DNA of 61,863 bases, filler included, from Stramenopiles sp. TOSAG23-2 (lineage: Eukaryota), in the NCBI GenBank assembly GCA_900128395.1. It is 24 parts of 24 records of this genome, joined end to end, with 100 filler letters (N's around TTAATTAATTAA, not from the genome) between each part and the next. Parts side by side here need not be neighbours in the genome. Positions count along the whole stretch, not along the records: positions 54,251 to 56,722 come from LT651713.1; 23 more parts are not named here. One strand, 5' to 3'. The notes under the pieces were generated by a model. The model saw nothing but the letters and a program-made list of their open reading frames with translations. It had not been told where the DNA came from and searched no databases. Positions 1 to 60,790 of this stretch are shown here, piece by piece; the stretch's first letter is position 1, and every line of letters starts with the position of its first letter. The translations under genes and the position numbers were made by a program.

Positions 1-750
1 AATCCTTACATTTATTAATATATATAATTTCTATACAAGTCTGGCTGGCTGGCAAGAATATTTATTGAAAAAAAAATATCAAAAAGAAAAAGAAAAAGTT
101 CAAAATTTGCTGTGTGTTTTTATATCTAGAGATATAAAAATTTGTGTATGATAATTGTACCCCGTGAAAAAAGTTTTTTTTATACATTAATCATACCCCG
201 GATTTCGTACAGGGAGAGATATCGTAATTTTGTTTTTACGTACTTTTTAAAGAAATTTTCTTGTCAGTTCTCATGTTCTCGCGTTCTGACCAACACACTT
301 ATTTAGTGTCGCACATACTCGTGTACGAGTATTATTTTGCTACTCGTACGAGTTTATCTTCACCCATTTTTATTTACTTGTAAATATTTTTATGTTCATA
401 CAAAAGAAGAAGGAAAAAGAAGGTGAACCAGTTCGTGGATTTTTCCCGTTGGATTTTCCCTCGTAGTGTAAAATATATATAAGTACAAAACTTCCTATAC
501 GTTCCAATTTCATTTTTTTTTGTACACATTTTTTGCAAAAAAAAGGCAAAAAGATAGAAATATATATTTATATTATTGTATTAAAAAGTGATGTGTGTAA
601 GATCGTGTGTACCGTGGTATATTTCTTCAATATAATATTATATATATATACGTATATATATATTTTGTACACAATTGGAATAGATCATATAACACAGCAT
701 TTGAAATAATATTTGCGTGTCGATACAGTAGATATAATTAATAATAAACG

Positions 751-2494
751 ATGGGTGGTGGTGCATCGAAAAACAAAATTATACCACAATTTACAGTAAC
801 AATTGTTATTAATGGAGAAGCTATCGTAGCTTTTGCTGTATGTGAAGATGCGACATTAGCAGATGCAAGGAAAGAAATATTATTAGAAAGTGAGGAATTC
901 TCTGATTTACCTACAAATTATTATTTCAGTCGTAACAATGCGCCATTTTCAATAAGAAAAGAAAATTCACATACAGTACGTGAACTTGCTGGAAGTGATT
1001 CTAGGTTAATATTAATACCAAAAAAAACAGAAGAAAAAAATAACGAAAGCAAAGGTGATGTAGAAACGAATGATATTCCAACGAACAATCTGGAAAAAGA
1101 ACAGGAAGAGGAAGAAGCGGAAGATAAAATCGAAACTGCTTTAGACAATGCCGAAAATGCAATGGATAAAGTAGATGAAGTAAATAACACTATCATTGAT
1201 AATACAACCGAAGAAATACAAATGGTACAACAAGATGGCTCAGTGACAACAGAAAGTGAGATAAGTTTACCATCATTTATAAAACTAGACGATACTTCAT
1301 TAGCAATATTAAATAATGTTTTAGATGGTATTGAAGTAGTTGCAGAAATTATTCCATATGCACAATTATTTATTAAAACATGTAAGAATATTTACGATCG
1401 ATGTCAAGAACCAAGTCGTTTACGTGCTGAAATACAAGATTTTTTACATTTTTTAAAAATCATTGAAACAAGTATTGTAAAAGGATTAAAACAATTTTCA
1501 AATGAAGATCGGTTAAAATTAATCAATAATAAATTAATTGAAGCGGCGAAAACAATAAAAGAATCACAAAATCGAAGTACATTTAGTGCATTTTTTTATG
1601 GAAAAGCAGATCGTGAAAAATTTACAGAAATTAAGAAAGATATCATGGATACCATGATACTGGTTAATTTTACCATGCAAATTGATGCAAATGTAAATGT
1701 TGCAAAATTGATGGCAAAAGATGAGGAATTACATAGTAAATTTGAAAACATTAATACATCAGAAGATGCATTGGAAACATTATTACAAGGAAAAAATAAT
1801 GATGTGTTGAAAAAGGAGATATTGCAACATTTGAATTTGAAAGAAAATGATTTAATATTGGAATTAGATGAATTGAAGAAGCGATTGACTAAAGTGGAGG
1901 AGAACCAAGAAAAAATGGCCGAAACACAGAATAACGTAGTCAAAACACAAGAAAAAATATTGAAACAAATCGATGTTACCACCTCATTAAAAACGATTTT
2001 AGATCCACTTGATTTCAATTTAGAAATTGATGGTGCCGTTGAACGTTTTCACAATGGTACAAGAAAATGGGCTTTTGATGATTTTGATAATTGGGTTGAA
2101 ATTAAATTAAATTCACGTGTATTTCTGTTATCTGGTGGTGCTGGTATGGGTAAAACTGGTATTATGAGTATGTTAGTACGTACAAGAATGGGAATTGTCA
2201 TTGCACATCATTTTTGTAGACATGATGATAGCCGTAAACGTGATCCAAAACATGTATTATGTTCTATTGCATATCAATTAGCGGAGAAAATACCAGAATA
2301 TCGTAAGAAATTAGAAGAATTAGGATTAAGTAATGCAAGTTTAAGTGAATTAAATGTGACGGGACTATTTGATAAAATTTTAAGAGCACCATTAGCAAAT
2401 ATAAAACGACCTGATGAATTTACATCAAAACGCCAAATTATTTTAATTGATGCATTAGATGAATGTGATCATAATGGTAAAAATGATTTATTAG
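751..2494 (+). CDS. NLR-like STAND protein: myristoylation signal, beta-grasp-like domain, MLKL-NTD-like helical bundle, coiled coil, NACHT NTPase (3'-truncated)
   Basis: Starts MGGGAS. NACHT motifs are GTRKW, Walker A GGAGMGKT (2134-2157), HHFCRHDD, SIAYQLA and Walker B IILIDALDEC. Residues ~185-310 (IPYAQLF..IYDRCQ..RSTFSAFF..DREKF) resemble the MLKL N-terminal bundle. Confidence 0.85.
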
Positions 2495-18039: not shown

Positions 18040-18409
18040 NNNNNNNNNNNNNNNNNNNNNNNNNNNNNNNNNNNNNNNNNNNNTTAATTAATTAANNNNN
18101 NNNNNNNNNNNNNNNNNNNNNNNNNNNNNNNNNNNNNNNTGTATCAATTATATCTTCACTTTTAATTGCATATGGATGGGTATATCGCGAAGATCTTCAA
18201 AGAAAATTTTCAAATAAATGTCAAACGAAAAAGGAGCAGGAAAGGTAATTAACATGATTAAATGTGTGGGTGGTGGTCGGTGGAATGACGGATTTTATGT
18301 ATAATATCATATAATATATGAGTAAGAGAACATTTTATATATGTAGAAAGGAGGGGGAGAGAGAGAGTAACACAGAAGTAATTTATTAAATACTCGTATT
18401 ACTTCGTAA

Positions 18410-18838
18410 AAAAATAAAAAAAACGAGCGTACCTATGATTATATACGTTTTGACGGTCACAAGATAGAGACCAACCGTCTGCTAAAAGAGTTTAGGACGT
18501 GCGAGCACTGTTGCAGACTATTGTTGCGCGTTTCGGCGTTAGAAGCGCGGTTGAAGAAGTATGAGAATCCTAGAAATATTATCGATGTGGATGCGGTCCT
18601 AGCTGGATTTTTCGAAAAGAATTACAAGCGGATATCGTGCAGGATGTATAGTAGGCGTGTGCTGTTTCAAGAGGTAAAGCGGTTTCTGGAGGATGAGTTT
18701 GATATCTGCTTGTTGAATGCTTCTGATGTTAGGTGGAGAGGTTTTATAGAGAAAATTTTAAACGAAAAAGCCAAAGGATATAAAAAATTCAGGATAGCTA
18801 AAAGAGATAAATTTTTAAGATTCTACTGGTTGGCTTGA
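18410..18838 (+). CDS. Hypothetical ORF lacking an in-frame upstream ATG (CxxC plus possible winged-helix-like segment)
   Basis: Open frame NERTYDY..TCEHCCRLLLRVSALEARL..DAVLAGFFEKNY..VLFQEVKRFL. Confidence 0.35.
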   Translation, partial: KNKKNERTYDYIRFDGHKIETNRLLKEFRTCEHCCRLLLRVSALEARLKKYENPRNIIDVDAVLAGFFEKNYKRISCRMYSRRVLFQEVKRFLEDEFDICLLNASDVRWRGFIEKILNEKAKGYKKFRIAKRDKFLRFYWLA

Positions 18839-19636
18839 CGTTGGGTAGTAGTTTGTGTATGTATGAGCCGGCTGGGTTTACTAAAAAAAGCTTGTAAAAA
18901 AATATTTACAAACAGGAAAACGACAATGTTTAACACCCCAGATGTTGAACATCCTGGATTAAATACTGGAAACATTAACCTTGAAGTTTGTTCATCTTGG
19001 CAAATGCCTCGGTAACAATATACACCACAAAGATGAAGCATTGGCTCATCTTTCAAAGTATTTCTGTTCATCATTGGAGAACATTTCGATAACGCGGCTT
19101 TATCTTTGACAAACTTATGAGCATCCTTCATTTCGTTGTGTTTATCGCGGATTGCATTTATTTTTTTTATTTCTTCTTTTTTTTTTCGTCTGTCCTCTTT
19201 CAGTTTTTCTTCCTCAATTCTTCTTTTTTCTGCAGCTTTTTCTTTTACTATCCTTCTTTTCTCTTTTGCTTATTCTTTTGCAATTCTTGCTTCTTCTACT
19301 TCTTTATTTTCAATTTTTCTTGTTGCCTCTTCTTTTGCGCTTCTTGTTTTTTTTTTGTCGTTTTTGTATTACTGCATCAGTACTTTCGCCAAATCTTGAA
19401 ATAACAGACAAAGGTCGTTTTTTATCATTATTTCCTTTCTTATGCGTGATTGTCTTTGCAGTCATAATCATAGGATCTTGGGCAGTTGGGCGTCTTGTGT
19501 TGATGAGATTTTGTACCGTTGTGGTAGTTGTAGTAGTTGTGCTGATAATATCTTGCTGATCATCATCTACGTCCATATTATCCGATGACATAACTGAAAC
19601 TTGATCTTCTTCACCTTCAGGTTCTCCAACTGGCAT
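18823..19636 (-). pseudogene. Disrupted K/E-rich coiled-coil gene
   Basis: ORF 19636-19310 continues, after a frameshift in a poly-A run near 19350 and one in-frame TAA, as KEEATRKIENKEVEEARIAKE*AKEKRRIVKEKAAEKRR.., which joins ORF 19131-18823. Confidence 0.55.
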
Positions 19637-20229
19637 TTATCCAACCATTTATTTCTAATATACCTTCAATTATACTTGTCCTTTTTGCCACTGTTGTATC
19701 TTTGCTCAGTCTAAACTCCCCACTGCTTTTTACACCGTCCCATTCTCCAAGCATACCAATATTAATTTTATTACCAATACATTTGTTCAGATTAATAATC
19801 ACAAATATTATTATTATTTTTATCATTATGTGAAATATTGCATATAATATTGGCATTTTATTCTGGGATATTAATAACGGCATTTTTGTTGTTATGTTAA
19901 ATATTTAGTGATGTAAATAAGAATAAAAACGCCTGCTTTTCCTACTTGAATTATTAGATTACTTAAGTGATTTTTTGTTTTGTTTTTGAAGTGGAGGACA
20001 GAAACTTAATTTTCGTACACCTTCTTCCGATATGTATATATTATCGAGACGTGAACGTGTGGTTTTCCTTGTCAGGGTACTGGCAAGGAAAATCTCTGGT
20101 TTCCAGAGTACCACCGGTGGTACGGAGGGCGTAAAAAGACTAAAAGTGACTGTAAAAATGGACCAATCATTATCAGCATGAAATAGCATTAGACGTAGGA
20201 GAAAAAATGCCTGCTATTCCTATATACCT

Positions 20230-20622
20230 ACAAATAGTTTGCGATCAACATGGGCCACCTGGAAAAACACGACGCCCCCTCCCCCCTTCCCCCCCCCGCC
20301 AAAATACCTTGAAATCGTCAAAAAATCGTGAAAATCTTTAAAATATTAAAAAATTGTATTGTTATTTTATTTTAATACTATCAAAACTTGTACTTAATTA
20401 AAAACTGCAATGTTTTAAGATTTTCACGATTTTCTCTCACACTGCAGTTTAAAATTAAGTACAAGTTTTGATAGTATTAAAATAAAATAACAATACAATT
20501 TTTTAATATTTTAAAGATTTTCACGATTTTTTGACGATTTCAAGGTATTTTGGCGGGGGGGGGAGGGGGGGGGGGGGCGTCGTGTTTTTCCAGGTGGCCC
20601 ATGTTGATCGCAAACTATTTGT
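20230..20622. repeat. Long foldback inverted repeat (~180-bp arms, 33-bp spacer)
   Basis: 20230-20409 is the reverse complement of 20443-20622, with a few mismatches (poly-C/G tract; AA vs TT near the spacer). Confidence 0.95.
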
Positions 20623-20724
20623 TTNNNNNNNNNNNNNNNNNNNNNNNNNNNNNNNNNNNNNNNNNNNNTTAATTAATTAANNNNNNNNNNNNNNNNNNNN
20701 NNNNNNNNNNNNNNNNNNNNNNNN

Positions 20725-51504: not shown

Positions 51505-51576
51505 TCACTCACTAATCTCATCTCCACGTTTTCCACCTTTTGAACGTATAAGATCAATGATCTTTTGTTGAATTGG
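51505..51576 (-). CDS. Extreme C-terminus of an ankyrin-repeat family paralogue
   Basis: PIQQKIIDLIRSKGGKRGDEISE* is near-identical in DNA and protein to the end of the ankyrin gene at 56440-56721. Confidence 0.7.
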   Translation of the reverse strand, partial: PIQQKIIDLIRSKGGKRGDEISE

Positions 51577-51703
51577 ANNNNNNNNNNNNNNNNNNNNNNN
51601 NNNNNNNNNNNNNNNNNNNNNTTAATTAATTAANNNNNNNNNNNNNNNNNNNNNNNNNNNNNNNNNNNNNNNNNNNNATTTTCAAATATTTGGAAAATAT
51701 TAT

Positions 51704-53209
51704 TTGTTTCAATTATATACGTCAGAAATATTGGAGTCTATGAATCAAATAAATAATTTATTTACTTTTTATAGTTGTTCATTGCCGGTAGAAGTGACGT
51801 CGATTTTATGTATTGCTCTTAGCATCGATAGTTTTCATACAGTTAGTTTTATGGTACGAAAAAATAATCCCAATAGAAGAGACAAACAAATTATTATTGA
51901 CACGATTGTTGACTTTTTATGTATTGCTTTGCCATTGATGATTACGTGGTTTGGATACCGAATTCCAATATCAATAGGAGAAATGATGCAAGTTAGTATC
52001 TATCCAGCATTCACGATATTAATGAAATTGGATACTATATTAGAAGAAATCATTCGATCTCGTACCGCTTCAGCAACGTTAAAAGCACAAGACCAAGCCG
52101 CTACGATAGAAAGTAGAAGACGGAAAAGTCTGTTTCGAGGATTAAGCCATTATGAAATTGGCGAGCAGCAACAACTATTTGTTCCATATTATGTTCATCT
52201 TGGGGCTGGTATATGCAAATTTTCATTTGGCATTTTATTTTTAATCGTAGCAATAGTACAATTAGCGTTGGTGTCATCTGTTAATGAATCTACATGCGAA
52301 GTAACGTTATGGGAAAGTTGTATCGTTAAAACACCATTTTGTGGAACCATTTTTACACCAGCATGTAATTGTGTTGTTTTAAATGTACGAAAACATAATT
52401 GGACAGAATTTCCAAGTGAAATATATAAGATGAATGCATTAAAAGTTATGCGGATTAATCATGGGCCATTGAAAACGCTGCCTAGTAATATAGATGTGAA
52501 ATTTGCAAAATTAGCTACTTTAAATTTAAATCACAACAAATTAATTGAAGTACCAGATAGTTTAGGGAACATGAAGTGTAATCAATTGAAATTAGATAAC
52601 AATAACTTGAATACATTGCCAGACAATGTTTGGGGGAATGAACATATCTTTTGGTTGGAAGTAGATAATAACAATATTTCAACCATTCCAGAATCAATTA
52701 GCACTTCAAAATCCTTGACCGAATTTCTGATAAGTAACAATAGTCTATATGAATTACCAGACGCAGTATTTGCAGTAAAGATGGTAATGTTTTATGCTGG
52801 TGGAAATAATCTAAAAAACATACCTGAAGCAATTGGCGAGGCAACATCTCTTCGATATTTAAGATTGAACAACAACAATAATATTACGATTATACCAAAC
52901 GAAATAAAAAACTTAATAAACTTAGAAGATTTTGATATTAGAAACAATGATATTAAAATCCTGCCTGATGGCATCGAATCTATGAGCGCACTGAAAAATT
53001 TTTATCTTCATGGTAACCCAATTTGCTCAAATGGATGGATTCAAAAAGCTTCCAAAAAAACCCAAGATTTTGTCAATCAAAATGGCGCGGGCTGTGTTGC
53101 GCAATGTTCGATGTATTGCCAAGATATATTTAAAGACGACCAGTATTGCGACAGCGACTGTAATTCGGCAGTGTGTGATTACGATGGAGGAGATTGTAAA
53201 ACGGAATGA
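51704..53209 (+). CDS. Multi-TM, Cys-cap, LRR, LNR (Notch) domain protein (5'-truncated)
   Basis: Several hydrophobic helices, CIVKTPFC..PACNC, about 9 LRRs (L.L..N.L..LP), LHGNPIC, and a C-terminal C..YC..DQYCDSDCNSAVCDYDGGDC matching LNR. Confidence 0.88.
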   Translation: MFQLYTSEILESMNQINNLFTFYSCSLPVEVTSILCIALSIDSFHTVSFMVRKNNPNRRDKQIIIDTIVDFLCIALPLMITWFGYRIPISIGEMMQVSIYPAFTILMKLDTILEEIIRSRTASATLKAQDQAATIESRRRKSLFRGLSHYEIGEQQQLFVPYYVHLGAGICKFSFGILFLIVAIVQLALVSSVNESTCEVTLWESCIVKTPFCGTIFTPACNCVVLNVRKHNWTEFPSEIYKMNALKVMRINHGPLKTLPSNIDVKFAKLATLNLNHNKLIEVPDSLGNMKCNQLKLDNNNLNTLPDNVWGNEHIFWLEVDNNNISTIPESISTSKSLTEFLISNNSLYELPDAVFAVKMVMFYAGGNNLKNIPEAIGEATSLRYLRLNNNNNITIIPNEIKNLINLEDFDIRNNDIKILPDGIESMSALKNFYLHGNPICSNGWIQKASKKTQDFVNQNGAGCVAQCSMYCQDIFKDDQYCDSDCNSAVCDYDGGDCKTE

Positions 53210-56076: not shown

Positions 56077-56439
56077 AATATTACAACCCCAGATTTGTGT
56101 CAGTAAAGCTTTTTTTAATATTTCTTAGGATTGGTCACACTACTTTTTTTGGAGCACACGGATATATTACCCGGTAAAAAATGGATTGATAGATTACTCT
56201 TGGGAGATATTTTTAATTATTAAAAATAAATTATCATATACGTATATTCGTACACATAAAATATGAAAATATATAAAATACGTAGTAATTAATTTATGAT
56301 GCAGAGATCTGGGAGATGTGTAATGTGTAGATGTAATTATCTTTATATTGTTTTTATTTTGTATATTTTTTTATATTTTGTACGCGTATTTTTTATTTTT
56401 TATTTATTTTGATATTATATGATATATGTTATGTTATTT

Positions 56440-56721
56440 TTATAATTCACTCTTCCGTTTTCCACCTTTTGAATGTATAAGATCAATGATCGTTTGTTTA
56501 ATTGGACTTTTATTATCATATGCCCCGTCCAGGGGAGTGCCCCCGAACCTGTTCTTCTTATTAATGCTATTAAGAGGCATATTAGTTAATAAGAACTCAA
56601 TCAACTCAGTATCCTTTTTGTTAGTCCATGCTGCTTCATGTAATGCATTATATCCATTACTATCTGTAATATTAGGATCAGCTTCACCTTGTTCAATTAA
56701 ATATTTAACTATTTGGAAATG
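56440..56721 (-). CDS. Ankyrin-repeat protein, C-terminal fragment
   Basis: HFQIVKYLIEQGEADPNITDSNGYNALHEAA..LIEFLL..INKKNRFGGTPLDGAY..IIDLIHSKGGK. It is not in the ORF track. Confidence 0.9.
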   Translation of the reverse strand, partial: HFQIVKYLIEQGEADPNITDSNGYNALHEAAWTNKKDTELIEFLLTNMPLNSINKKNRFGGTPLDGAYDNKSPIKQTIIDLIHSKGGKRKSEL

Positions 56722-57415
56722 TNNNNNNNNNNNNNNNNNNNNNNNNNNNNNNNNNNNNNNNNNNNNTTAATTAATTAANNNNNNNNNNNNNNNNNNNNNN
56801 NNNNNNNNNNNNNNNNNNNNNNTTTATTTGTATTACTTGATATATATGTGTCTACTGTAAATATAATATCATATGTACTCTGATGTAATAAAACATATAT
56901 CTCTTATTAATTTTCATTCTTTGTATCTGTCTGTGTGTGTAATATCCTCGTATAATACCGGGATTATATACTGTACATTCAATACATGAAGGTGCAAAAT
57001 ATTACGTTATATGATTGCAGCCGCCTTACAAATTATTAACACTGGACACAGCATGCCGGGCATGGCGGTACCGATACTTTTTCATGCGATATTTTGGCCT
57101 CCATGCTATTCCCATGCCCAGCATGCTAAGTATCGTACCAGGAAAAAATTGACTGGGCCAGCCAAGCCAGCCCAGCCAGCCTTATACCAGGTTGTGGTAG
57201 GGCTGGCAAGTATTATTACTACTAGAGACTAGAGCTAGATATATAATATCAATCATCAAATGAATTATTCTTCTAGATAATAATTAATAATTATATATTT
57301 TACATTAATAATACATCCAGACGACTGTCAATATATTTAATATATATAGAGAGGTATATCCATATAATAGTTCTATCAAAAAGTAATAGTCAAAGGCAAA
57401 AAAAAAACAAGCAAA

Positions 57416-59393: not shown

Positions 59394-60790
59394 GGGGGGG
59401 GGTGGCAACCAATGGAGGGTGTATGTTCGTAGGCACTGATTCTATGTTTAATTGTACTAGGTGTGTTTTAACCAATTGTCGAGCCAGTTCATATGGCGGG
59501 GCTCTAATAGTAGAAAATGGTGGTTATTCGTTTTTACTTCATTCGAATATTTCGAAAAATGAGGCTGAATATGGCGGCGCTCTATTTGCACATGAAAATG
59601 GTAAAATTGCACTTGAATCATGTAGTCTCCTAATGAATCATGCATACTCGAACGGTGGTGGTTTATACGTGTGGACTTCTGGATTTGCAAATATTTATAA
59701 AACAACTGTTGAAAACAATACAGCAAACGAGGGAGGTGGACTTGCTGCTGATTCTGCAAGTATTAGTGAAATTATACTTAGAAACTCAGTATTAAAAAAT
59801 AATGTTGCAAATACTGGAGGTGGCGCGAAGGTTGGCTGCAGCAGTTGCGGGGCCGGCAAGGACAAAATAATAATACTTGATAGCATAGTAAAAGATAATA
59901 CGGGTGGTTCAAGTGGAAATGTAAACATTTTATTGTCCAGTTCAATTTTAATATTGATAAATGTGGATATTAATGGGAAGATTTCTGGGGCAAGCTCTAC
60001 AAAATCGTGCTCTACTGCTCCCACACAATGCACCGACAATGGCTACACCAATGCGATATGCACCACCCGTCAAAATCCCGACGAAGGTGTAATATGCGCT
60101 CAAAATTGTTCAACAGGTTACAAAAAAGCTGGAACTTTCAATCACACATGCGTAGTATGCTCTGCGGGCACCTATAATCCTTTATGGAATCAACACCAAT
60201 GTCAACCATGGTCCGATTGCATCAGCAGCCAGTACATCTCTATAAACGGCACAAGCAGCTCTAACCGTGTATGTAGTAGCTGTGGGTCGGGGAAATATTC
60301 TGCTTCTGCCAACACCTATTACTGTACGGACTTGACGAACTGTGTGGCAGGTGAGAAAATAGGTTCCAATGGCACAAGCAGCACCGACCGTACCTGCGTA
60401 GCATGCACAACTGGAACATTCTCTACCGGAACCAACCGGAATGCATGCACGAATTGGACCACATGTAACGTTACGACCGAAGTGGAAAGCAGCGCTGGTT
60501 CTACGACGGCGGACAGAGTTTGTGCAACAGTAGGAAGTCCATCGCCAACAGGAAGTTCGCCAGACGCTCCATCGCCATCAGATAATGCACCACCACCAGC
60601 AGGTGCGCCATCCCCAATGGATATTAGTCCTTCGCCAGCAGATTCAGCAACTACCACCGGAGCACCCAACTCCACAAGTGTTCTCTCTTCTTTACAGAAT
60701 AAGATAGAAGAGCTGAGTATCGGTAGTTGCAATCAGCCAGTCTGGTTTACAACCATGTTTCTGATTGCATGGAGTGTCGTACAATGTTAA
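59394..60790 (+). CDS. Surface protein with a beta-helix (GGA/L repeats), TNFR/Cys-rich repeats, a Pro/Ser stalk and a hydrophobic C-terminus (5'-truncated)
   Basis: N.A..GG(A/G)L repeats, C..C..G(T/K)(Y/F)S....C..W..C..G...SDRVC repeats, a PSP-rich linker and a GPI/TM-like end. Confidence 0.85.

Follow-up and report, generated by a model that had tools for sequence, protein, structure and literature searches.

The 61,863-nucleotide stretch of the Stramenopiles sp. TOSAG23-2 assembly (GCA_900128395.1) analyzed here, referred to below as the window, carries on the minus strand of contig LT651713.1 (positions 56440 to 56722) the C-terminal part of a gene from a large family of small ankyrin proteins, in which an almost invariant framework is interspersed with codons that differ in nearly every copy. 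This pattern is probably best explained by birth-and-death evolution combined with interlocus gene conversion under diversifying selection, which would have given rise to a natural recognition repertoire resembling designed ankyrin repeat proteins (DARPins), possibly with a link to F-box function.

Hypervariable codons in a frozen ankyrin framework

The window fragment comprises ankyrin repeats 3 and 4, preceded by the last part of repeat 2 and followed by a KGGKRKSEL tail, and reads as 93 codons from 56721 to 56443 (P0001) followed by TAA at 56442 to 56440. Its N terminus is missing, and the open reading frame (ORF) runs off the contig end at 56722. Pfam matches to Ank_4 (E = 4.7e-10; 39.9 bits, cutoff 22.7), Ank_5 (1e-09; 39.0 bits, cutoff 27), Ank (2.1e-09; 37.6 bits, cutoff 21.1), and Ank_2 (4.9e-08; 33.9 bits, cutoff 27.3) all exceeded the gathering score. 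The initial annotation had described paralogous C termini on two contigs of the window, and the second tail (PIQQKIIDLIRSKGGKRGDEISE*; 51505 to 51577, minus strand), aligned to the first, is indeed a true paralogue: from 51576 to 51505, 48 of the first 52 aligned bases are identical to the tail of the window gene.

The family is large rather than restricted to a few members. A protein search for longer relatives yielded 176 proteins at an E value of ≤1e-3 among 212 candidates, and the 120 relatives listed are 58 to 84% identical to the window fragment over 93 residues. Scanning of metagenome contigs gave 304 pattern matches, 160 of which held up in tblastn; the 80 best were retained and correspond to 76 loci (L001 to L076). 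Furthermore, contigs from three studies were placed on the window contig at a likeness of at least 80%. These comprised 121 and 216 contigs from two small DNA runs of "organism A" (X1 and X3, respectively), 752 from a seawater metagenome (X2), and 273 from a metatranscriptome (X4), where the presence of family contigs does not prove transcription. Almost all of them fell at 56409 to 56722, and the unique part of the window contig had a depth of 0 to 10 where it was covered at all. Depth in X1 was confined to 5 of 30 bins, with the unique part uncovered; holes in such contig-based cover prove nothing, and summed depths of placed contigs do not equal copy numbers.

Across 121 aligned proteins, framework columns have an entropy of approximately 0 bits, as opposed to 2.5 to 3.7 bits at positions 20, 22, 24, 29, 32, and 33 of repeat 3 and at positions 57, 58, 59, 61, 66, 69, and 71 plus one inserted column of repeat 4. 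At codons 57, 58, 59, 61, and 66, amino acid entropy is 2.9 to 3.7 bits, which bears out the suggestion that diversification is localized to the hairpin and first-helix contact positions. The same localization of variability was found inside each of four assemblies. Likewise, the repeat 2 hairpin is hypervariable in a 27-member subfamily, and overall, approximately 20 variable positions lie on three hairpin/first-helix surfaces. In the window gene (minus strand), the hypervariable hairpin of repeat 3 is located at 56623 to 56664 (D20, N22, Y24, E29, W32, and T33, mostly of the NNT type), and that of repeat 4 is located at 56509 to 56553, with N57 at 56551 to 56553, R58 at 56548 to 56550, F59 at 56545 to 56547, G61 at 56539 to 56541, G66 at 56524 to 56526, D69 at 56515 to 56517, and K71 at 56509 to 56511. 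The latter is the segment most prone to length change, with an off-modal size in 31 of 90 copies compared to 8 of 90 for the repeat 3 hairpin. Among the rows listed, variant letters in the four runs occurred at 56509, 56516 to 56517, 56524 to 56526, 56540 to 56541, and 56546 to 56553, and none occurred at 56527 to 56539.

Residues at the hairpin tip and in the first helix of ankyrin repeats make the contacts with the target. On structural knowledge rather than a structure computed for this family, we take the 13 variable positions to be the canonical ankyrin contact face. Their composition is rich in aspartate, asparagine, arginine, tryptophan, and tyrosine, and proline is nearly absent. Relative to the framework, tryptophan makes up 9.4% versus 0.0% of residues, and arginine, tyrosine, and aspartate are enriched 3.4-, 3.3-, and 2.8-fold, respectively.

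Conservation of the framework extends to the nucleotide level. A codon alignment was built from 90 copies, i.e., the window copy and the 89 of 94 tblastn matches that span residue 1 or 2 to residue 86 or beyond. Framework codons are almost fixed in this alignment, including their synonymous positions (CAT in 88, TTC in 88, GTT in 87, GAT in 89, and ATT in 89 of the 90 copies). As the leucine codon that has become fixed varies from site to site, codon bias is not the cause of this frozen state.

The feature that first drew attention to the gene is a GC-rich patch at 56521 to 56550 (minus strand; coding-strand sequence AGG TTC GGG GGC ACT CCC CTG GAC GGG GCA, encoding R58, F59, G60, G61, T62, P63, L64, D65, G66, and A67). 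A recount reproduced its reported G+C content of 22 of 30 bases, and the G+C fraction at third codon positions (GC3) is 9/11 over codons 57 to 67 versus 0.20 over the remaining 82 codons of the window gene. Judged by composition alone, the patch is not exceptional for a 61-kb scan and could have arisen by chance: 22 of 30 G+C is reached in nine separate regions of the window (82 of 58,565 scanned segments), and at least eight G/C-ending codons occur in 29 of 10,619 ten-codon segments of the 28 long ORFs. The patch is counted as real because it is conserved across the family. Only one copy of it exists in the window, since the second tail, truncated where its contig ends, misses the patch by 15 bases.

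Within the patch, six of the ten codons (G60, T62, P63, L64, D65, and A67) are among the most invariant of the family at both the amino acid and the nucleotide level, while the other four (58, 59, 61, and 66) are hypervariable, so that invariance of the patch among paralogues, raised initially as a possible objection to localized diversification, applies to one part of it only. The invariant core ACT CCC CTG GAC (T-P-L-D of repeat 4; 56527 to 56538, minus strand) makes use of codons ending in G or C, which are uncommon in this genome. Its four codons are present in 88, 85, 80, and 87 of 90 copies, respectively, and the exact 12-mer is carried by 68 of 77 copies across four assemblies. The cores of other repeats are AT rich, e.g., ACA CCT TTA ATG in repeat 2. 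GC3 at hypervariable codons 57, 58, 59, 61, and 66 is 0.93, 0.92, 0.87, 0.93, and 0.59, respectively, and the hypervariable codons of repeat 3 and of positions 69 to 71 keep a third-base T (GC3 of 0.01 to 0.08 at 20, 22, 69, and 71). The patch is a family-wide island composed of six invariant codons that bear most of the G+C and four hypervariable codons scrambled at their first and second bases. The description of a GC patch lying over variable positions was therefore correct with regard to codons 58, 59, 61, and 66, with codon 57 adjacent, but most of the G+C falls on invariant framework codons. Overall, the earlier observation was confirmed and its interpretation was partly supported.

Rates, codon independence, and the mode of diversification

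For substitution rates, each of the 4,005 pairs formed by the 90 copies was analyzed by Nei-Gojobori counting. Synonymous (dS) and nonsynonymous (dN) divergences of the framework were 0.159 and 0.103, respectively (dN/dS [omega] of 0.65), while the nonsynonymous proportion (pN) at the 13 hypervariable codons was 0.586, or approximately 1.1 after Jukes-Cantor correction. Substitution at the contact codons thus far exceeds the synonymous rate, which supports the initial proposal of strong selection at these sites. Moreover, pN at the hypervariable codons does not rise with framework divergence. When duplicate pairs (hypervariable pN of ≤0.05) were omitted, it was 0.56 in the 40 pairs with a framework synonymous proportion (pS) of <0.02 and 0.59 in the 493 pairs with a pS of 0.2 to 0.5. 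In the 17 pairs with 1 to 2% nucleotide divergence of the framework, 75% of the hypervariable codons already differ. The proportions of differing codons separated by one, two, or three base steps were 0.37, 0.47, and 0.16 in close pairs compared to 0.36, 0.44, and 0.21 in random pairs; given this similarity, the codons look like draws from a family-wide pool rather than products of single steps.

Matches at different hypervariable codons were uncorrelated among 85 of the 90 copies (near-duplicates dropped), with a mean r of 0.011 within hairpins and 0.010 between hairpins and a maximum of 0.13 (codons 57 and 58). The variance of matches per copy pair was 1.53, compared to 1.35 ± 0.04 under independent shuffling. 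As adjacent variable codons lie within one read, this independence is not an assembly effect. For the two hairpins, 86 and 87 distinct blocks were counted among the 90 copies, and blocks were shared only at duplicate or orthologous loci. Shuffling of cassettes from a small pool was rejected on the basis of these counts.

Comparison of syntenic loci provides information on how the differences arise. Seventeen locus pairs share at least 400 nucleotides of nonfamily flank at 87 to 99% identity, and each of them is represented by the two copies that differ least. The outcome was bimodal: three pairs differ at none of the 11 to 13 hypervariable codons, and the remaining 14 pairs differ at 8 to 13. 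In one pair, the flanks are 99.0% identical yet 12 of 13 codons differ, and three pairs with flanks at 95 to 97% identity differ at none. The bimodality and the lack of a relation to flank identity argue against steady mutagenesis in situ. At L048 and L050, approximately zero differences per 45 bases were found in both flanks, and divergence starts and stops at the ends of the ORF (835 to 1839), including framework and N-terminal sites. Such ORF-confined divergence is expected from ectopic conversion by a paralogue, because homology between paralogues ends at the ORF ends, and it supports gene conversion, one of the processes put forward in the initial annotation. At L005 and L013, divergence was restricted to the hairpin part of the ankyrin region. 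In a trio of tubulin-linked loci (L025, L032, and L066), L025 and L032 have the rare codon string ATG AGG TTC GGG GGA in common, and the consecutive variable codons beside the shared stretch have all been replaced, several of them by three-base changes. L025 and L032 also differ by isolated codon replacements between identical framework codons (ATT/TGG, TGG/GAT, TAT/GTG, and GAA/CTT). An earlier comparison of flanks had given a mixed picture, with some pairs at 0.85 to 0.96 identity and others at background (shuffled control, 0.41), and is superseded by the analysis of syntenic pairs.

These observations are consistent with a lineage-specific family of hundreds of members, both dispersed and in tandem, in a marine protist with an AT-rich and intron-poor genome. 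Gene duplication would supply the members, which would then undergo birth-and-death evolution. Frequent interlocus (ectopic) conversion and recombination would homogenize the framework, thereby accounting for the frozen state of its synonymous sites, and would at the same time reshuffle the contact codons. Diversifying selection would keep the contact codons different and prevent their homogenization, with the presumably ancestral G or C third base mostly retained in the repeat 4 hypervariable codons while bases 1 and 2 are scrambled. The outcome would be a germline-encoded repertoire of binding proteins.

Several points weigh against this explanation. The contact codons are near linkage equilibrium even one or two codons apart, whereas tract-wise conversion alone should leave short-range linkage; this is its weak point. 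Because nearly every hairpin block is unique, not a single donor-recipient tract was observed. Either exchange has been old and frequent enough to erase linkage or an additional per-codon process is at work. In addition, assembly chimeras in a repeat family could mimic a pattern of identical flanks and different ORFs, both window copies lie at contig ends, and all DNA comparisons rest on contigs rather than raw reads. With regard to the F-box component, the assignments fall below the Pfam cutoffs, a PDB profile search gave no F-box match, and the structural model of the N-terminal region had a mean predicted local distance difference test (pLDDT) score of 51.6.

A per-codon process could take the form of a dedicated mechanism, other than a retroelement, that introduces new bases at positions 1 and 2 of the contact codons, with selection acting only as a filter of the results. 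Template switching at a GC-rich quasi-palindrome or a hotspot of recombination or repair would be possible routes. The hypervariable codons are saturated whatever the framework divergence and mutually independent, as in a combinatorial library, their third bases are largely kept (NNT or NNC/G), and the isolated three-base replacements between L025 and L032 would also fit. A candidate structure is a predicted 9-bp stem with a 4-nucleotide loop at 56527 to 56548 (minus strand; minimum free energy [MFE] fold), in which 56540 to 56548 pairs with 56527 to 56535. The 80-nucleotide MFE of the window copy is −20.2 kcal/mol (z = −2.39), and 5 of 200 dinucleotide shuffles folded as well. The G-rich hypervariable codons pair with the invariant C-rich core in 72 of 79 core-bearing copies, and this hairpin is also the one with the most indels. 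Shuffling of the 5' arm only weakened the fold from a mean of −14.0 to −9.9 kcal/mol, with a z value below 0 in 89% and below −1.64 in 41% of copies, and an AT-rich synonymous core gave −7.1 kcal/mol. However, the mean z value of the repeat 3 control region was also negative (−1.60), which makes the controls only partly convincing, and the stem signal may be no more than glycine, tryptophan, and arginine codons beside CCC. Furthermore, the syntenic pairs differ at 0 or 8 to 13 codons, which is not clock-like, framework and N-terminal sites changed together with the hairpins at L048/L050, neither an enzyme nor a template was found in the regions searched, and diversifying selection in a large population can give omega values well above 10. 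We therefore consider such a codon-targeted mechanism unlikely.

A more elaborate version is a built-in diversification device, with the synonymously frozen framework serving as a homology platform, the GC-rich quasi-palindrome serving as a hotspot for the contact codons, and an F-box-like head making the family a ubiquitin-coupled ankyrin system for immunity or non-self recognition. This, too, appears improbable; if it were true, new specificities would arise far faster than by ordinary mutation. The observed pattern, with contact codons near linkage equilibrium beside synonymously frozen frameworks, tests how far conversion and selection can reach in the absence of a dedicated mutator.

The absence of adaptive diversification, with unconstrained loop residues drifting to saturation beside a framework under purifying selection, is very unlikely. 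Ankyrin hairpin tips do tolerate substitutions, and a framework omega of 0.65 indicates that constraint is not extreme. However, neutral sites cannot exceed the synonymous rate, and therefore drift is rejected by a pN of 0.586 (approximately 1.1 after correction) versus a framework dS of 0.159 and by a pN of 0.56 even at a pS of <0.02. In addition, tryptophan, tyrosine, arginine, aspartate, and asparagine are strongly favored at the variable positions, where proline hardly occurs.

Similarly, there is little to recommend an artifact, i.e., a chance GC-rich stretch or variation created by misassembly or amplification of single-cell DNA. The patch is only one of nine regions of such composition in the window, single-cell assemblies are prone to chimeras, and the family breaks contigs. 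Nonetheless, the same core and the same variable positions are found not only in 90 copies from eight contig-name series but also in four runs (three studies), one of them an RNA library. Moreover, one k-mer or read spans adjacent variable codons, which means that assembly cannot have generated the combinations in which they occur.

Targeted mutagenesis by a diversity-generating retroelement (DGR), in which a reverse transcriptase copies a template repeat into a variable region with adenine-specific errors, can practically be dismissed. Many hypervariable codons conform to NAT or NAC, which brings to mind the AAY codons of templates. However, this proposal of the initial annotation failed the test for A-biased changes and, in the ORFs scanned, that for a reverse transcriptase. 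Sorted by consensus base, 22 of 95 A, 21 of 54 G, 7 of 38 C, and 13 of 77 T sites are variable, showing no adenine specificity; 53 of the 95 consensus-A sites, synonymous third-base A included, are near-invariant, and TGG is frequent at several hypervariable positions. No reverse transcriptase family was detected in 70 ORFs of the window (28 plus 42) or in 70 ORFs flanking relatives, and the only occurrence of the core 12-mer in the 61-kb window, to which the search for a template repeat was limited, is the core itself. Moreover, the copies are scattered across loci whose other genes are nuclear housekeeping genes. Within the reach of these data, which cover the aligned copies, the window, and the ORFs flanking relatives, a classical DGR is excluded.

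Genomic setting, possible function, and other features of the window

Complete ORFs were recovered for 59 of 89 extracted gene copies and are mostly 275 to 325 codons long. A typical member has 250 to 310 residues, starting with a variable N-terminal region that contains an [LI]P-x8-IL-x-YLD-[IV]-K-x-L-type motif, followed by four dissimilar ankyrin repeats and a short tail. Repeats 2, 3, and 4 within one gene are 14 to 28% identical to one another (five members). Two alternative C-terminal tails, ...SKGGKR-x-EL and ...SKGGKAN-x2-DENGR-x-VG-x-GNGDLNH, mark subfamilies. Within the group formed by P0002, P0003, P0005, P0006, P0010, and P0104, some proteins chain two or three full modules and reach up to 820 amino acids. 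Only Ank families exceeded the Pfam cutoffs in eight of eight full-length relatives, and among 303 PDB sequences retrieved with one relative (P0119) at an E value of ≤0.001, the best matches included ankyrin-1 (2.3e-28) and DARPins (2e-26 and weaker). Of 94 matches, just one contains an internal stop, an observation in favor of functional genes. The copy at L003:1501-1779 has an in-frame stop at a framework codon and is likely a pseudogene.

Tandem copies, two each, were found at 10 of the 76 loci, and 9 of these 10 are arranged head to tail. The neighbors of family members include genes for tubulin, Vps35, ESCRT-II, LSM, Arf, phosphoglucomutase, an IFT-type TPR protein, and similar nuclear proteins. 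This housekeeping setting points to a nuclear protist family rather than a virus, and a giant-virus origin was rejected. Two further observations concern adjacent ORFs. On a contig of 45 kb, an ORF for a D12-class N6-adenine DNA methyltransferase (L015:1834-2799, plus strand; 1.7e-45) immediately follows a family member on its downstream side, and ORFs for a VHL beta domain (L070:2-622, plus strand; 9.9e-06) and a ubiquitin C-terminal hydrolase (L016:1-711, plus strand) adjoin members in two cases, probably by coincidence.

From the evolutionary pattern, we infer that the family serves as a recognition repertoire, with an immune-like receptor role as originally suggested. Members could possibly act as substrate adaptors of Skp1-cullin-F-box (SCF) ubiquitin ligases, with prey, parasites, viruses, or non-self as potential variable targets. 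The F-box-like family PF12937 was the commonest Pfam match of the N termini (13 of 28; best E value, 0.0016), and PF00646 (F-box) matched 8 of 28 (best E value, 0.035), in all cases below the gathering score; the match of P0119 had an E value of 0.12. A profile search of PDB sequences with the N-terminal region retrieved no F-box protein and only one irrelevant match (E = 0.34), and the AlphaFold model of this region from 28 sequences (mean pLDDT of 51.6) was unusable. Searching the ESM Atlas returned generic ankyrin clusters only, the third-ranked of which is automatically named "F-box domain-containing protein" and provides a lead only. Judged from sequence, a role of the family as SCF ubiquitin-ligase substrate adaptors is conceivable but somewhat unlikely.

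Full-text literature searches, judged from their listings, returned no description of a comparable small-ankyrin repertoire in a protist, and no ankyrin repertoire comprising hundreds of small genes seems to have been reported before from an uncultured marine protist. To our knowledge, almost nothing is known about immunity in marine heterotrophic protists, for which the family represents a candidate system of self/non-self or antiparasite recognition.

The window consists of 24 separate contigs of 2,470 to 2,494 bases each in descending order and is not one locus. Contigs are joined by artificial, nonbiological spacers of the layout N44-TTAATTAATTAA-N44, such as the strandless one at 56723 to 56822 behind the ankyrin-bearing contig. 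The G+C content of the contigs is 26 to 38%, and that of the ankyrin-bearing contig (54251 to 56722) is 30%. Long intron-free ORFs on these contigs encode EF-G, a threonyl-tRNA synthetase, kinases, an EML-type propeller, and other ordinary eukaryotic proteins. The contig ends at 51577 and 56722 truncate both family members of the window inside the ankyrin region. Evidently, this short-read assembly is interrupted by the family, which accounts for the breaks at such genes in these assemblies and makes copy numbers derived from assemblies of this kind too low.

Other ORFs of the window have features of receptors. A 582-codon ORF at 748 to 2493 (plus strand), open at the contig end, contains an NPHP3_N-type NACHT domain (2.3e-24), and its N-terminal stretch resembles the MLKL_N executioner domain (7.9e-05, under the cutoff). 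By its sequence, this ORF looks like a death-domain architecture of the NOD-like receptor (NLR) type in the same protist assembly. The ORF at 51680 to 53206 (plus strand) combines leucine-rich repeats with a Notch LNR domain, and that at 59396 to 60787 (plus strand) combines glycine-rich repeats with a TNFR cysteine-rich domain; both have the look of surface receptors. Finally, two segments rich in G/C homopolymers (20265 to 20305 and 20543 to 20594), located approximately 280 bases apart near the end of contig 18140 to 20624, are mutual reverse complements and may represent either an amplification chimera or a real inverted repeat.

Comparison with known systems

The closest known analogue is found in fungal NLRs with repeats of high internal conservation (HIC). 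According to two studies, WD40, ANK, and TPR repeats of these proteins are kept 80 to 100% identical by concerted evolution, four or five hypervariable codons per repeat lie on the binding surface under diversifying selection, repeats are exchanged both inside individual family members and from one member to another, and short-read assemblies are broken at these sites (PMC11761791, PMC4986451). In this work, the ankyrin sites map to the surface that is variable here, i.e., the concave face and the beta-hairpin/loop (PMC11761791, PMC4986451), and the genes described include het-d, het-e, and nwd of Podospora (Dyrka et al. 2014, PMC4986451; Ament-Velasquez et al. 2025, PMC11761791).

The protist family likewise consists of a homogenized scaffold with a few fast-evolving hypervariable codons per repeat. 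However, repeats within a fungal HIC gene are at least 85% identical, whereas those within a protist gene are 14 to 28% identical and conservation is found between genes at the same repeat position. The homogenized unit is the whole gene in the protist family and the single repeat in the fungal genes. The fungal proteins possess NACHT or NB-ARC nucleotide-binding domains, neither of which was above the cutoff in eight full-length members of the protist family. Small protein size (250 to 310 amino acids), hundreds of genes, and a marine protist host also set the family apart from the fungal NLRs, and no repeat-number polymorphism was seen among its copies, only codon indels in the hairpins.

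A resemblance to DGRs lies in the confinement of variation to specific codons of a ligand-binding scaffold, many of which keep their third base. In contrast to the single cassette of a DGR, the protist family is eukaryotic and made up of many dispersed genes, with no reverse transcriptase, template repeat, or adenine specificity found in the regions searched.

Expanded, fast-evolving families of F-box and MATH-BTB adaptors in nematodes and plants, which evolve under positive selection, join a ligase-docking motif to a variable recognition domain, and proteins with ANK repeats and F-box-like motifs are known from poxviruses and intracellular bacteria. The F-box-like motif of the protist family differs in being N terminal to the ankyrin repeats and in matching below threshold only. 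Furthermore, the site-specific saturation of the protist family is far greater than is known for these other families. Hypervariable repeat receptors exist in other forms as well, namely, the variable lymphocyte receptors of lampreys and plant NLRs.

The likeness to DARPin libraries concerns the fixed consensus framework, the variable hairpin and first-helix residues, which are presumably equivalent to the residues randomized in DARPins, the independence of positions, and the enrichment of tryptophan, tyrosine, arginine, and aspartate. Unlike these libraries, the protist family is natural and germline encoded, with four nonidentical repeats and additional N- and C-terminal regions. It thus represents a natural experiment on the residues and positions that make good ankyrin binders, one that is directly comparable with DARPin design.

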